A stretch of DNA of 16,740 bases from assembly GCF_003334385.1 (NCBI RefSeq), contig NZ_QOWN01000063.1; one strand, written 5' to 3'. Source of the stretch: Escherichia coli. GTDB taxonomy: Bacteria; Pseudomonadota; Gammaproteobacteria; Enterobacterales; Enterobacteriaceae. A program made the translations under genes and the position numbers. The notes below the pieces were generated by a model. The model saw nothing but the letters and a program-made list of their open reading frames with translations, was not told where the DNA came from and did no database searches. Below are positions 1-7,575 of this stretch, piece by piece. Within the stretch, counting starts at the first letter, position 1; each line of letters starts with the position of its first letter.

Positions 1-63
1 GTTACCAAAGCTGTTCATATCCGGTACCTGATTTTCTCCTGTCCCCACATTCCTCTTTGCCGC

Positions 64-89
64 TTCTCCCAAACCAACCTTTTAGAAAA
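64..89. promoter_or_regulatory. Candidate hix/gix-like invertase crossover half-site upstream of pin
   Basis: TTCTCCCAAACC-AA-CCTTTTAGAAAA lies about 55 bp upstream of the invertase start codon. The left half and AA core resemble recalled hix/gix crossover sites (hixL about TTCTTGAAAACC AA GGTTTTTGATAA). The right half is not a good inverted copy, so this is tentative. Confidence 0.2.
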
Positions 90-143
90 TGCAGTTATTC
101 GGCTCAGATGGCATGATCCCGGATTTTTACAGGGTTATTTCTC

Positions 144-698
144 ATGCTTATTGGCTATGTACGTGTGTCAACAAATGACCAGAACACAGATCTACAACGT
201 AATGCGCTGAACTGTGCAGGATGCGAGCTGATTTTTGAAGACAAGATAAGCGGTACAAAGTCCGAAAGGCCGGGACTGAAAAAACTGCTCAGGACATTAT
301 CGGCAGGTGACACTCTGGTTGTCTGGAAACTGGATCGGCTGGGGCGCAGTATGCGGCATCTGGTCATTCTGGTTGAGGAGTTGCGCGAACGTGGCGTTAA
401 TTTTCGCAGCCTGACGGATGCTATTGATACCAGTACCCCAATGGGGCGCTTTTTCTTTCATGTGATGGGGGCCCTGGCTGAAATGGAACGAGAACTGATT
501 GTTGAACGAACAAAAGCTGGACTGGAAGCTGCTCGCGCACAGGGACGAATTGGTGGACGTCGTCCCAAACTTACACCAGAACAATGGGCGCAGGCCGGAC
601 GATTAATTGCAGCAGGAATTCCTCGCCAGAAGGTGGCGATCATCTATGATGTTGGTGTATCGACACTGTATAAGAAGTTTCCGGCCGGAGATAAATGA
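144..698 (+). CDS. pin: Serine recombinase, Pin/Gin/Hin/Cin-family DNA invertase (184 aa)
   Basis: ATG at 144. N-terminal catalytic motif MLIGYVRVSTNDQ with the nucleophilic Ser, a resolvase/invertase core (DTLVVWKLDRLGRS) and a C-terminal HTH (VAIIYDVGVSTLYKK). Length and sequence are closely similar to PinE/Gin as recalled. Confidence 0.9.
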   Translation: MLIGYVRVSTNDQNTDLQRNALNCAGCELIFEDKISGTKSERPGLKKLLRTLSAGDTLVVWKLDRLGRSMRHLVILVEELRERGVNFRSLTDAIDTSTPMGRFFFHVMGALAEMERELIVERTKAGLEAARAQGRIGGRRPKLTPEQWAQAGRLIAAGIPRQKVAIIYDVGVSTLYKKFPAGDK

Positions 699-700
699 AA

Positions 701-742
701 CCGTAGCACGTCGTATGCAAGATCGTGCTGCGGTTTATGCTT
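701..742. terminator. Hairpin between convergent pin and GIY-YIG genes (putative bidirectional rho-independent terminator)
   Basis: 10-bp stem CCGTAGCACG (701-710) pairing with CGTGCTGCGG (724-733), including one G-U pair, around a 13-nt loop. It is followed by TTTATGCTT on the + strand and by a T-rich run (complement of 690-700) on the - strand. Confidence 0.45.
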
Positions 743-755
743 ACCACTTGAAGAT

Positions 756-1625
<870 letters not shown>

Positions 1626-1709
1626 CTAACCCTTTGAATTTACATAGCGCAAAAAGATACCTTTCCTCATAATGTGAGCTAATTTTATGTTTCGTTTGAT
1701 GATCGGGTC

Positions 1710-1770
1710 GGTCTCGAAAACCGGAGTAGGGGCAACTCTACCGGGGGTTCAAATCCCCCTCTCTCCGCCA
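1710..1770 (+). pseudogene. tRNA-Ser(CGA) 3' fragment (serU-like; anticodon arm, long variable arm, T-arm, acceptor 3' strand and CCA), att-remnant-like
   Basis: GGTCTCGAAAACCGGAGTAGGGGCAACTCTACCGGGGGTTCAAATCCCCCTCTCTCCGCCA matches the 3' two-thirds of a class II tRNA-Ser with anticodon CGA. No 5' acceptor strand (GGAGAGA) is present upstream, so it is a fragment, not a gene. Confidence 0.6.
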
Positions 1771-2352
1771 CTTTATCAATGACTTATCTCCTGACTTCCC
1801 GCCTTGCTTTTCCTAAACAGAACAATCGTAGAATATTCTTGAAGGGTTAGATCGTCACTGTTTTCTGTTCGATACTGTGACATTCAGCACTTGATTCGCT
1901 ATGGATCTGACAGGAAGGTTTTGAGCGAAAATCTGCAGTTATTCAGTCGTTTTCTTATCGGTCACCATTATTCTTTTAGACATTGATCCTACAAAGCTGC
2001 CGCAAAGTTGGTGGTGGGAACTGAAGTTGCGTAGAGAAGGGGTCAATACCCGGAGGCAAACATGGGCTGGCAAAAGTGTAGCGGCATTAGGCGCAGCTAT
2101 TTAGCCTAGTTATGTTTTATGAAAACTTGATATCATATAAGTGTCTTACTTATTGGCTGTAAATAAGTTTTTCCTAAGGAATTGTTTCTTGAGTATCATT
2201 TGTAACTGTAACGGAATTTATAATCCTTTGCTTTATTGTTACGGTATTTTTTATCACACCCTATTTTTAGTGGTTTTTTATACTGAAGTTTGGCAAAGTG
2301 AACTTTATATACATATACTTCATCCTGGTTTCAGTTAAATTGGGTGGATGAT

Positions 2353-3096
2353 ATGGCAACTACATGTTCAGTTATATTGATTTTGGAGTCCTTTGATGTT
2401 TATTTCGGAAAAGAGAGTGTGTTTCTGGAGAGAGGTTCATCTGTACTTGTCGACTCTAGCTCTAGAGATTTTTTCCTGACATATCCTGAAAGAGTGATAG
2501 TGGCGGATTTTGGCGCTGAGTTTATTAGTCGCTATTTGAAAGCTAATAACTTAAGGGATATTTCTGATTGTAGGGAATATCCATCTTATTTAAAAATAAA
2601 CTTTGCTGACTTCAGTTTAATTAAAGGATTAATTAGTTGGGCTAATCACTGTGCTGAATACATAGAAATTTTTGATGAGTCTATTGCTTTTACATGTCTC
2701 TCTGCATTTTCTTCTGAAAAACAATTTGGAGTATTTCTGTTTGGATGTTTGAAAAGCACAGGGGCTAAAGTTAAAACGATTATTCATACGGATTTATCTG
2801 CACCATGGCGTCTTAAGGATATATCATCAAGATTATATCTCAGCGAAAGTTTACTAAAGAGGAAATTGAAAGAAGAGGGGGTATCATTCAGTAAGATCAT
2901 ACTTGATGAGAGGATGCAAATGGCTGAATATTTACTCAGCACTCGTTGTTATCCTATTAGTAAAGTAGCTAAGGTCTGTGGTTATGCCAGTGTCTCATAC
3001 TTTACTTATGTATTTAGACGTTATTTTGGTGTTTCTCCAAGTCAATACTCTCAGAGGAGTTCAGAAAGTAAAATTCTTACTCACCAGGGAATCTGA
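2353..3096 (+). CDS. AraC/XylS-family transcriptional regulator (Rns/AggR/ToxT-like size, about 247 aa) in AT-rich DNA
   Basis: C-terminal double HTH typical of AraC family (WRLKDISSRLYLSESLLKRKLKEEGVSFSKI...VAKVCGYASVSYFTYVFRRYFGVSPSQY). Strongly AT-rich codon usage unlike the flanking core genes. The ORF track starts at GTG 2344; the first ATG is at 2353 with a GGGTGG purine tract upstream. Confidence 0.75.
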   Translation: MATTCSVILILESFDVYFGKESVFLERGSSVLVDSSSRDFFLTYPERVIVADFGAEFISRYLKANNLRDISDCREYPSYLKINFADFSLIKGLISWANHCAEYIEIFDESIAFTCLSAFSSEKQFGVFLFGCLKSTGAKVKTIIHTDLSAPWRLKDISSRLYLSESLLKRKLKEEGVSFSKIILDERMQMAEYLLSTRCYPISKVAKVCGYASVSYFTYVFRRYFGVSPSQYSQRSSESKILTHQGI

Positions 3097-3100
3097 TCAT

Positions 3101-3600
3101 TGTTCTTGCCCCCTTATTTCCAGACAGGGGGTGTATCTTAAGTTAACGTTACCCGCTGACGTCGATATTCTCGCGGAGAGCGATAACCCAACGCACTGTG
3201 CGGATGGTGTTCATTGTAATGTTCGATCGCCACTGCAAGATTATGCAATGCCGTTCTTACATTCGGTTTCGGCATGAACGCGATGTAGTCTTCCTTCATC
3301 GTTTTCACGAACCTTTCTGCAATTCCATTACTCTGAGGACTGCTGATTGCCGTTGTGCAGGGCTCCAGATTCAACTCTCTGGCGAACTGCCGTGTTTCAT
3401 GCGCTCTATACGCTGAACCGTTATCTGTCAGCCACTGGATGGACTGTTCCGGTACTTTATCGCCGAAGCGTTTTTCTATCGCTCCTAACATGACATCCTG
3501 CACTGTCGCTTTATCGTAACCTCCCGTGCTTGCGGCCCAGTCTATGGCTTCACGATCGCAACAGTCCAGGGCGATTCATCTGGGCCAATCCTCGCTCATA
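3101..3600 (-). mobile_element. Truncated IS3-family (IS2-group) insertion sequence remnant
   Basis: Terminal sequence TGTTCTTGCCCCCTTATTTCCAGACAGG at 3101-3128 resembles the IS2 inverted-repeat end (TGGATTTGCCCCTATATTTCCAGACATC as recalled). It is followed by the C-terminal part of an IS2 InsD-like transposase. The inner boundary is uncertain and no second terminal repeat was identified. Confidence 0.65.
3138..3575 (-). pseudogene. IS2 InsD-like (IS3 family OrfB) transposase, C-terminal fragment only
   Basis: Translation ...[31 protein letters not shown]...[51 protein letters not shown]...[18 protein letters not shown] has the DDE-core C-terminal signature of IS2-type transposases. The frame is closed by a stop at 3576-3578; the N-terminal half and the OrfA gene are absent. 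Confidence 0.7.
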
Positions 3601-3850
3601 ACAGGCATTCACTTCAGTCATGGCAGAAAGGTATGCATGCTGGAGAAGTCGTGAAAGAAAAGAAGACTGCTGCGCCGTTTGTCGTCACGTTTATCTTCAT
3701 TGGCTATGCAAGTCGTAATACAAGGTGGGACAAAACTGAGACACATAAGGCCTCGCAATGGCTTGCAAGGCTTTACATGTTTTGATGTGGTGGGACGTGT
3801 GAGCGCAGTGTTGATGGGGTAATGCTTTGAATTAGAAGCGGATTCTTATA

Positions 3851-3895
3851 ATTCGTAATGCGAAGGTCGTAGGTTCGACTCCTATTATCGCACCA
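3851..3895 (+). pseudogene. ptwF: tRNA-Thr(CGU) 3' fragment (thrW-like; corresponds to the ptwF pseudo-tRNA of K-12), island right-end att remnant
   Basis: ATTCGTAATGCGAAGGTCGTAGGTTCGACTCCTATTATCG-CACCA matches tRNA-Thr from the anticodon loop (CGT) to CCA with one G missing near the 3' end. No 5' half is present. It lies immediately before the core yagP-pao genes. Confidence 0.7.
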
Positions 3896-4021
3896 TTAAA
3901 ATCAAAGAGTTACCCCATATTTAAATACACCACGTTTCCTCCTGTGCCGTATTTGTGCCATTGTAACCTTGGCAATTCATCAAAATACTGTTCTGACATC
4001 AGGCAGTGCAGGTGCAGACAT

Positions 4022-4432
4022 TTAAGCCAATTGCTGCCGCCATTCTTTGACGTAGTCAATCAGGGCGCGGAGCTTTGGTGCAATATTGCGACGCTGTGGG
4101 AAATACAGATAGAAGCCCGGAAATTGTGGAAGAAAGTCATCAAGCAGCGATACAAGCTTACCGCTTTCAATATATGGCCTGAAAGTTTCCTGAGTGGCAA
4201 TTGTTATTCCTCCGCCGGCAAGAGCCAGCCTCAACATCAGACGCAGATCATTAGTCGTAATCTGCGGTTCAATCGCAAGGTCGAAAGTTCTCCCGTTTTC
4301 TTCAAATGGCCAGCGATAAGGCGCAACCTCCGGGGACTGACGCCAGCCGATACACTTATGGGTATTTCCCCCGGAGGCGAGAAAGCGCTCTCCACGCCCG
4401 GCCGCAAGGATCAGGACGACGGGGGCAGGCAT
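4022..4432 (-). pseudogene. yagP: LysR-family regulator remnant, C-terminal effector-binding portion only (136 aa)
   Basis: Translation from the internal ATG at 4432 gives 136 aa with a LysR C-terminal domain signature (...GGGITIATQETFRPYIESGKLVSLLDDFLPQFPGFYLYFPQRRNIAPKLRALIDYV). No HTH domain is present. Its 5' end overlaps the paoD stop region (4411-4432). Position and length match K-12 yagP. Confidence 0.6.
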
Positions 4433-5367
4433 GAATCCTCCTCCTGATGGAGACGTACAGAGGCGACTTCTGCCAGCACGGAGAGTGCCAGAGTATGCGC
4501 ATCCCGGGCTTTGGGGAATATCCCGACGGGTGCCCGGATTTGCGTTGTTTCCTCCCTGGACCATCCCAGCTCGTGGAGCTTTTGCAGACGTAACGTGTGG
4601 GTTCGATAGCTGCCCAATGCGCCGAGATAAAAGGGTTTTGCTTCTCGCGCGGCCTGCAACACTGGCAGCTCCCGGTTGAGATCATGGCACAGCAAAATGA
4701 CCGCCGTATCGGTATCGATCTGAGCGCTGGCTGAGGCCGGAAAAAGATCGAAGATATGGCTGTCATAGCCTGTGGCTGCTGCAAGACTCGCGGTTGCCTG
4801 CGCCTCAAGAGAACGTCCGTAAATCATCAGCCTGACGCATGGCCTGAACCCCACCTCAAAGCCATTGAGATTCCAGCCCGTCCGGGTTTGCGTGGGCAGG
4901 CACACCAGCGATTGTGCTTGCGGATCGTAGCGCAGCCCCACCGGTTTTCTCTGTTCCAGGCGGTTCAGCACGGCGAGCAGAGGCTGTGCCGAGCGTAGTT
5001 TATGGAGCGTCAGCGTGATCCCACCGCCGCAGGGCAGAACGATGTCAAACCACGGCGAACCTTCGCCATAGCGAATTTCGCGATCGCGGCCTGAGCCCAT
5101 CATCTCCAGCGCTTCAAAAGCGGCAGCGGCCTCCACGCAGCCGCCAGAGACAAAACCGCAGTAACGACCATCTTCGCGCACCACCATCTGCGCCCCGAGC
5201 GGGCGCGCCGCGCCGCCGCGTATCTCCACCAGCGTCACCAGCACCGCTCCTTTACCGGACATTAGCGCCTCTACGGCGAAGCGCAGAATGGTCCGGTGGT
5301 CATCGGTGAGAAACGCCTGCTCTGGCTTATGCCAGTGTTCGTCTTTGTCAAAAAGCGGGTATGACAT
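4411..5367 (-). CDS. paoD: Molybdenum cofactor insertion chaperone, XdhC family (318 aa)
   Basis: ATG at 5365-5367 with a GGAGGA Shine-Dalgarno sequence 4-9 nt upstream. 318 aa, last gene after paoC. Length and position match K-12 PaoD (YagQ). Confidence 0.9.
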   Translation of the reverse strand: MSYPLFDKDEHWHKPEQAFLTDDHRTILRFAVEALMSGKGAVLVTLVEIRGGAARPLGAQMVVREDGRYCGFVSGGCVEAAAAFEALEMMGSGRDREIRYGEGSPWFDIVLPCGGGITLTLHKLRSAQPLLAVLNRLEQRKPVGLRYDPQAQSLVCLPTQTRTGWNLNGFEVGFRPCVRLMIYGRSLEAQATASLAAATGYDSHIFDLFPASASAQIDTDTAVILLCHDLNRELPVLQAAREAKPFYLGALGSYRTHTLRLQKLHELGWSREETTQIRAPVGIFPKARDAHTLALSVLAEVASVRLHQEEDSCLPPSS

Positions 5368-5376
5368 TGTTCCTCC

Positions 5377-7575
5377 TTAAACCACATCCGGCAGCTTATC
5401 GAGCAGCTTATCCAGAGTGATGGGATAATCCCGTACCCGAATACCGGTGGCGTTATACACCGCGTTGGCGATAGCCGCGCTCACGCCGCACAGGCCCAGC
5501 TCACCGACACCTTTGGCCTTCATCGGGGAGGATATGGGGTCGGTATCATCCAGGAAAATCACCTCCTGTTTTGGGATATCCGCATGAACCGGCACCTCAT
5601 ACCCCGCCATATCGTGATTAACGAAGTAGCCCAAACGGTCATCCACCGCCAGCTCCTCCATCAGTGCCGCGCCCATGCCCATAGTCATTGCGCCAATGAC
5701 CTGGCTGCGCGCAGTTTTCGGATTCAGGATGCGTCCTGCAGCACACACAGCGAGCATACGCCGGACCCGAACTTCTCCCGTCGCGCTATGCACGCCGACC
5801 TCCACAAAATGCCCGGCAAAGGTCGACTGCTGGTACTCTTTGCTCAGTGTTCCGAATTCAATGCTCTCTTCCGCTGTCAGTCTGCCGCCTGCGGTGGCTT
5901 CATGTAGCGTGGCGCTTCGGGTACCGTTGGTAATCTTGCCGTCGGCAAACTGCGACTGCTCAGGATCAAACCCGACTGCCGAGGCAATCATTTCGCGAAG
6001 CTTCATACAGGCGGCGTAAACGCCGGAGGTGGAGGTATTCGCGCCCCATTGTCCACCAGAACCCGCAGAAACCGGGAAACTGGAATCGCCGAGGTGAACC
6101 GCAACCTGCTCCAGCGGTACGCCAAGCATTTCCGCTGCCGTCTGGGCCAGAATGGTGTAGCTGCCGGTGCCAATGTCGGTCATGTCCGTTTCTACGGTAA
6201 CGGTGCCGTTTTGTTCGAGGTGAACCCGAGCACCCGATTTTTCCAGCAGATTATTGCGAAAGCCCGCCGCAACACCGTGGCCGACTAGCCACTCCCCGTC
6301 GCGCACCTGTCCGGGTGTGGCGTTGCGCTGCTTCCAGCCAAATTTATCCGCTCCGGTGCGCAAGCACTCGATAAGCTGACGGCGAGAGAAGCAGCGCGTC
6401 GGGTCGGCGGGGTCAACCTGAGTGTCATTCAGGATGCGAAACTCGACGGGATCGATGCCCGCTTTTTCCGCCAGTTCGTCGATCGCGATTTCGAGCGCCA
6501 TCAGACCGGGGGCTTCGCCGGGCGCACGCATGGCGTTCCCTTCCGGCAAATCAAGCGTGGCGAGCCGCAGGCCGGTATGACGATTCGCCCCGGCGTAGAG
6601 TAATTCGCTTTGCTGTACCGCCGTTTCCGGCGTGCCGCCGGGCAGGTTTCCAGACCAGCTTTCATGTGAGATAGCGGTGATTTTCCCGCTCTGGTCGGCA
6701 CCGATACGCAAGTGCTGAAGGGTGGCGGGGCGGTGCGTGGTGTTATTGGGAATAGAGGGGCGGGGGAGCATCACTTTAACCGGACGTTTCACCGCTCGGG
6801 CGGCGAGGGCCGCCAGCAGCGCATCGCTTCTCAGGAACAGCTTGCCGCCAAACCCTCCGCCGATATACGGGGAGATAATACGCACATTCTCCACGGGAAC
6901 TTTCAGCGTTTTTGCCAGATCGGTGCGGCACCAGTCAATCATCTGATTTGAGGTCCAGAGGGTAAGCTTATTTCCATCCCAGACGGCCATCGAGGCATGC
7001 GGCTCCATCGCCATATGGCTCTGGTCCGGGGTCGTGTAGGTAGCATCAATCTTCACCGCAGCGGAGGTGAAAGCCCCGTCAAAGTCACCGACGTTTTTGT
7101 CGGGCGTGTCTTCCGGCGGCTGATTGACGGCCTGTTTTTCGTCCGCCAGGGAGTAAGCTCCTTTATTACGGCGATAGTGTGCCTGCACCAGCGAGGCCGC
7201 CGCTCGCGCCTGTTCGAAGGTCTCGGCCACTACCAGCGCAATGGCCTGATGATAGTGCTCAATAGTGGGGCCGCCTAACAGCCTGGCGGTGTTTTTGTCG
7301 CCTTTGCCGAGTGCCCCGGCGTTACTGGCGGTAATGACAGCCAGTACGCCCGGCGCTTTTTGCGCGGCGTCCGTATCAAGGGCGGTGAGGCGTCCTTTGG
7401 CAATGGCGGAACCGACGATATAGCCATAGGCGGCGTTGGGGGCTTCTTCATGCCATTCGTAGGCGTAGCGTGCCGTGCCGGTAGTTTTCAGCGGTCCGTC
7501 GATGCGGTCATGGGGACGACCGACAACCTTCAGCTGATCGATCGGGTTTTCCCCTGCGGGTTTATCAAATTTCAT
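5377..7575 (-). CDS. paoC: Aldehyde oxidoreductase molybdopterin-binding large subunit (732 aa)
   Basis: 732-aa xanthine dehydrogenase-family molybdenum subunit ([21 protein letters not shown]...; GGGFGGK motif). Start ATG overlaps the paoB stop as ATGA at 7572-7575. Confidence 0.95.

Follow-up and report, generated by a model that had tools for sequence, protein, structure and literature searches.

An intact invertase gene, pin, lies near the left edge of the 16,740-bp stretch of DNA analyzed here (the window), which raises the question of what this enzyme acts upon. The window is E. coli chromosome, matching strain 2824 at 99.6% and, over window 16–1600, Sakai at 98.1%. The original prediction pointed to a 26-bp sequence ~55 bp upstream of pin that resembles hix/gix sites, and placed the start of the window just inside or beside a tail-fibre invertible segment. 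Our analysis indicates that this sequence, at window 64–89, is very probably the crossover site on the pin side (pix-type, corresponding to hix, gix and cix) of an invertible region resembling the P segment, which belongs to a prophage remnant beside the pao operon. Switches of this type have long been known, and the locus is a correct but ordinary example.

The pin gene (144–698, plus strand) encodes a serine DNA invertase of 184 aa whose catalytic serine lies in the intact motif YVRVSTNDQ. The protein matches Pfam Resolvase (1e-51) and HTH_7 (2e-15), the Gin structure 3uj3 (E 5e-94) and the DNA invertase family PHROG 125 (3e-97). Its sequence is the same as that of pinE of O157:H7 Sakai Sp1 and of strain 2824 (100% protein identity, 554/555 nt), and it shares 97% identity with e14 PinE and ~75% with Mu Gin (145/194 aligned columns). 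An NCBIfam search gave no family above cutoff for Pin, for the GIY-YIG ORF that follows it or for the fibre cassette that precedes it.

The 26-mer TTCTCCCAAACCAACCTTTTAGAAAA ends 54 bp before the start of the pin ORF at 144, in good agreement with the predicted distance. It reads TTCTCCCAAACC AA CCTTTTAGAAAA and shows the features of Din-family sites, namely two 12-bp half-sites, a 2-bp core and the pattern TTnTC..AAACC. The inner half-site (64–75, plus strand), which travels with the segment, is identical to the inner halves of both the e14 and the Sakai sites; together with the core it forms a 14-bp sequence, TTCTCCCAAACCAA, identical to both e14 sites. By analogy with Hin/Gin biochemistry, the central AA (76–77) would be the point of staggered cleavage and strand exchange, and inverted partner sites have TT at their centre on the same strand. 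The outer half-site (78–89, plus strand) stays fixed beside pin and differs from the e14/Sakai type, CGTTTATGAAAA, at 3/12 positions. It lies beyond any fibre coding sequence, yet it retains the half-site pattern TTnTC...AAA.

Three scans of the window, each over both strands, converged on this sequence. The 26-mer itself (≤3 mismatches) has a single match in the 16,740 bp, as does the palindromic family consensus TTCTCNNAAACCNNGGTTTNNGAGAA (≤3 mismatches), whose match is the 26-mer. The published 16-bp inverted repeat of e14, CCTTCTCCCAAACCAA, allowed ≤2 mismatches, also matches once, at 62–77, with 15/16 bases (1 mismatch). For each scan 0.00 matches were expected, based on 200 shuffles. By these same scans, a second crossover site is absent from the window. 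The description of the 26-mer as only half-symmetric is accurate, in that its two halves are imperfectly inverted and 14/26 positions are self-complementary. Since the pin-proximal sites of e14 and Sakai score 16/26, such asymmetry is normal for the family.

Which part of the window belongs to the segment? The first base lies 63 bases left of the 26-mer and hence 75–77 bases inside the invertible segment. Bases 1–75, read on the minus strand, are the pin-proximal segment end and form the 5' part of a tail-fibre C-terminal cassette (Sv'-type, gp53-like C domain) that has no start codon of its own. A minus-strand frame extends from 81 to 1 without a stop, running off the edge of the window, and it encodes a conserved tail-fibre junction. 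The first 77–78 bases recur exactly in seven other loci (L003, L004, L005, L012, L013, L015 and L019), and the full cassette, as found in relatives, matches PHROG tail-fibre families and Pfam Gp53-like_C. In the orientation of the window, this gp53-like cassette, whose first 25 codons correspond to bases 75–1, would be the silent copy beside pin. PGAP calls a short 'gp53-like' protein here from an internal ATG at window 18–16.

The original prediction had taken heart from neither the symmetry nor the reading frame, noting that no minus-strand frame passes through the site. Strictly this is true, because of an in-frame minus-strand TAA (reverse complement of 82–84) within the outer half-site. 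But the statement misleads, as the frame open from 81 to 1 is the one that matters after exchange. When exchange at the central dinucleotide was carried out in silico, the window's frame joined the constant part of the fibre uninterrupted and in frame. The TAA is irrelevant to site function, because inversion replaces the outer half-site; the evidence for the site is strong, and its earlier grading as weak was too cautious. With bases 1–77 assigned to the invertible segment, the short 'gp53-like' ORF becomes a silent fibre cassette instead of a gene fragment, which corrects the annotation of the window's left edge. It also follows that assemblies of this region may legitimately differ in orientation, or be garbled.

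The surroundings of pin identify the element to which the segment belongs. Downstream of pin lie, in order, a GIY-YIG gene, an AraC-type regulator, an IS fragment, paoDCBA and yagU; the ORFs after yagU are presumably ykgJ and the ecp operon of K-12, which their sizes fit. In both strain 2824 and Sakai, pin stands at the end of a decayed prophage. Directly upstream of it, these genomes have a fibre gene and an assembly gene on the plus strand and then, facing them on the minus strand, a second assembly gene and a fibre-tip cassette, the classical arrangement seen in the Mu G, P1 C and e14 P segments. The decay is evident from an IS3 element in the baseplate J gene of strain 2824, and from O/P pseudogenes and the loss of all tail genes upstream of the fibre gene in Sakai Sp1. 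Between the prophage remnant and paoD, window 3138–4564 holds an IS3-family transposase fragment and a truncated LysR-type gene, going by the annotation of strain 2824. With these fragments the element reaches its decayed right end. Overall, the prophage is probably defective, and host-range switching may therefore be vestigial. The idea that inversion would switch host range describes the ancestral role; for the present, the element in the relatives is a decayed prophage whose virion may no longer exist.

Along its full length, the GIY-YIG ORF directly 3' of pin (756–1580, minus strand) is a match to PD-T4-3, an anti-phage model of PADLOC (E 2e-140); it also matches PHROG 5356 and Pfam LEM-3_GIY-YIG. 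It accompanies pin in at least nine related loci. Its position beside pin is that of mcrA beside pinE in e14.

Relatives were found through a look-up of the cassette protein, and four of them (L012, L013, L015 and L019) match window 1–223 exactly. The predicted site implied an inverted copy within a few kb upstream, and in these nearest relatives it is present: all four carry an inverted partner site with a TT core, CTCTCGAAAACCTTGGTTTGGGAGAA, 1,858 bp upstream. The partner lies within a 260-aa tail-fibre gene, 3' of a Mu-like baseplate module. Between the two sites are convergent cassettes, each with a fibre tip and an assembly gene, the latter of the Caudo_TAP type. In L015 both alternative fibres are complete ORFs, of 260 aa and 215 aa, and the other three are likewise complete. 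The gene context of the window on the pao side is kept in L015 and L019, and L015 is collinear with window 1–6014 at 98.4%. Counterparts of the partner were seen in other prophages too. In Sakai, a repeat search paired the pin-proximal site with one inside the fibre gene, as an inverted repeat of 20 nt at 95%, and strain 2824 has its partner in the same place (CTCTCGAAAACC TT GGTTTAGGAGAA). The e14 pair consists of TTCTCCCAAACCAACGTTTATGAAAA beside pinE and the reverse complement of TTCTCCCAAACCAAGGTTTTCGAGAG inside stfP, in agreement with the repeats of an experimentally demonstrated inversion (PMC12529663).

Homology breakpoints also fall at the site centre. Three metagenome contigs match the window exactly over bases 1–77 (L004) or 1–78 (L003 and L005) and diverge right after the AA core, each into a different flank. 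In L003 a Sakai-type pin flank follows, and in L005 another invertase, of a P2-like phage, with its distal site 1.86 kb away. L004 enters the constant part of the fibre; there the cassette occupies the expressed position, as an actual fused ORF of 215 aa. In this metagenome scan, none of the three cassette-bearing contigs has the window's own flank. Megablast and blastn searches of complete E. coli genomes with the window start never returned bases 1–15 joined to this pin flank, and an exact search of a collection of genome contigs with window 1–50 gave 0 hits.

Comparison with strain 2824 gave 17 differences in window 1–58 and a single one in 59–1791, so the crossover site is also a sharp mosaic boundary. 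Over bases 1–223 the window agrees perfectly with L012, L013, L015 and L019, and their pin genes diverge thereafter (∼65 differences as far as base 1700); over bases 59–1791 it is nearly identical to strain 2824 and Sakai, which have a different cassette. This pattern suggests that the pin region is recombinant, one boundary being the crossover site and the other lying within pin at about base 224. The same cassette was also seen in a lambdoid-type prophage (L014, reverse-complemented), with three site-like sequences, not two, at 4488, 6346 and 8074. With three sites, the locus could adopt additional arrangements beyond the usual two, as in a different E. coli prophage (PMC4272514).

To look for both orientations, we built flipped junctions in silico by inversion at the site centres and matched them to complete genomes. 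The junction derived from L015, which has the window-type outer half-site, matched E. coli JE86-ST05 at 600/600 and strain a7 at 99.8%; in both strains the identical 26-mer abuts the opposite segment end. JE86-ST05 carries the identical 26-mer beside pin at the same chromosomal locus; parked there is a Collar-type tip, with a gp53-like tip fused to the constant part. Across genomes, the window's exact 26-mer is joined to three different segment ends. The Sakai-type flipped junction was found at 600/600 in at least 25 O157:H7 genomes. At ≥80% junction coverage, the orientation of the deposited Sakai sequence occurs in 283 complete genomes and the flipped one in 230, counts that could in part reflect inherited states as opposed to ongoing switching. 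When the 1,856-bp segment of Sakai is inverted at the centres of its two sites, the result is the sequence of O157:H7 strain 86-24 (CP038408.1), with 0 mismatches across 5,600 bp. For the strain 2824 junction (L001 type), the flipped form had no near-identical match among these genomes, the best being 94.7%. Both orientations, differing by a precise inversion, are thus present in relatives, including those nearest to the window. In e14, phase variation occurs within clonal cultures (PMC4272514).

Two assemblies of strain 86-24 are of interest here. One (L009) is clean and flipped. The other (L010; NZ_CP017251.1) contains dozens of indels at ~1–2600 and runs part forward and part reverse exactly within the segment, which may be a consensus artefact of mixed-orientation reads. 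We considered CP017251.1 as same-strain proof of both orientations; being garbled inside the segment, it counts as a hint only.

Does the 26-mer remain part of a working switch in the window's own genome? It could instead be a frozen relic, a true former site whose partner and segment have been deleted, leaving pin an orphan. Frozen remnants do exist among relatives: in L020 and L011 the cassette is broken off 26 bases in and the distal site is lost, and L018 has no called invertase adjoining the cassette. Yet all four loci identical to the window over bases 1–223 retain the partner site and complete cassettes. Decay has reached other parts of these prophages, as seen in baseplate J of strain 2824 and the O/P pseudogenes of Sakai Sp1, but pin is intact here, its protein is identical to that of the O157 locus that flips, and the window's cassette end runs undamaged through the conserved junction. 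The upstream DNA beyond the 63 bases left of the site lies outside the window, which leaves the relic some room; we consider it unlikely. Our preferred reading is a crossover site in an invertible region, for which we infer a partner site and current activity in this genome, since only 63 bases of the window precede the site.

A second alternative is that the 26-mer serves mainly as an operator for pin autoregulation, bound by Pin without a role in recombination. The leader between site and gene (90–143, plus strand) contains a block, ATGGCATGAT at 108–117, that is common to the window, e14 and Mu gin, in leaders that are otherwise divergent. This block is extended -10-like (TGnCATGAT) and is probably the -10 of the pin promoter, in which case the -35 would fall at or beside the outer half-site, 54 bp 5' of pin. 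A consensus promoter scan of window 1–900, however, did not call a pin promoter. Moreover, an operator role would be compatible with a crossover role, and the precise inversions in relatives end at this very sequence. We therefore regard a pure operator as highly improbable. As for chance resemblance, or conservation that stems from the LGLGE motif encoded by the tail fibre, the overlap of the inner half-site with conserved GLGE coding would alone preserve part of the repeat, but the outer half-site keeps its pattern outside fibre coding, 0.00 chance matches are expected, and the site centre is where the breakpoints and precise inversions fall, so that the probability of this explanation is negligible.

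If 64–89 is the crossover site, the switch would work as follows. A Pin dimer would bind the 26-bp site and a second dimer the inverted partner ∼1.86 kb upstream, within the tail-fibre gene. Together with an enhancer to which Fis is bound, in the 5' end of pin, the pair would assemble into a tetramer that cleaves both sites at the AA/TT core, rotates and religates, leaving the segment inverted. The segment would comprise two convergent cassettes, each with a fibre C-terminal tip and an assembly gene, and the cassette adjoining the constant N-terminal part would be the one expressed. In the Hin and Gin systems, dimers and a Fis-bound enhancer come together, the DNA is cut at the 2-bp core, and rotation of the subunits exchanges the strands (PMC3798978 and references therein); for Pin, the cleavage chemistry and the dependence on Fis and an enhancer are extrapolated from these homologs.

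The 5' end of pin offers a weak candidate for such an enhancer. Two G-N13-C cores, at 165–179 and 214–228, are conserved with Mu gin and delimit a putative Fis-bound recombinational enhancer at 165–228. In a motif scan, for which the Fis motif is highly degenerate, the centres of these cores are 49 bp apart and the cores start ∼95 bp from the site centre. This distance fits the spacing of ∼100 bp between hixL and its enhancer (PMC3798978). Among 11 distinct invertase genes, synonymous-site conservation peaks in pin codons 1–20.

What might the switch do in a decayed prophage? In e14, inversion is reported to yield a chimeric fibre protein that blocks adsorption of phage T2 (PMC12529663). By analogy, the flip-flop may have been retained here for use by the host, in which case the pin switch and the PD-T4-3 GIY-YIG gene would make up a small defence island. 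We offer this as a speculation of low probability. If true, fibre-tip switching would alter which incoming phages are blocked, and not the host range of a virion. The closed pin-proximal ORF argues against an exact StfE2-type product at this locus. Switches of this kind stay active in heavily decayed prophages, both orientations being common in complete O157:H7 genomes, and the one described here adjoins a known anti-phage gene, which fits recent claims of host co-option.

The closest well-studied counterpart is the P segment of e14, reportedly described with PinE and two crossover sites by Plasterk and van de Putte in 1985. The two loci share TTCTCCCAAACCAA, an invertase (97% identity), and a defence-type nuclease gene after pin, namely mcrA in e14 and the PD-T4-3 GIY-YIG gene here. 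The order of parts is also shared: fibre constant part, site, tip with assembly gene, convergent assembly gene with tip, site, and pin. The segment measures ∼1.86 kb between site centres in the relatives of the window, against a reported 1,797 bp in e14. Unlike e14, which resides at icd, the window locus lies beside the pao operon, at the Sakai Sp1 position next to thrW. The two also differ at 3/12 bases of the outer half-site and in their cassette alleles. The ORFs stfE of e14 and yfdL of Sakai begin in the leader and continue across the site, whereas the TAA at 82–84 closes the corresponding ORF in the window, so a StfE2-like chimera from a leader start is impossible in that frame.

Sakai Sp1 (ECs_0280 to ECs_0284) resembles the window in its identical Pin protein, its downstream neighbours and its inner half-site, and is known in both orientations. 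It differs in the leader between site and pin (35/54 identical), in having an outer half-site of the e14 type, and in the cassette allele beside pin. Further counterparts are Mu Gin/gix and Salmonella Hin/hix. The Mu G segment is ~3 kb, and Hin flips a promoter, not coding cassettes. The gix site differs from that of the window at 9/26 bases and has a GA core. In both systems the enhancer is located within the 5' portion of the invertase gene (PMC3798978 and references therein). Like the window locus, they have a 26-bp site of two 12-bp halves and a 2-bp core directly 5' of the invertase gene, and the Mu G segment likewise switches tail-fibre C-termini (S/U versus S'/U').
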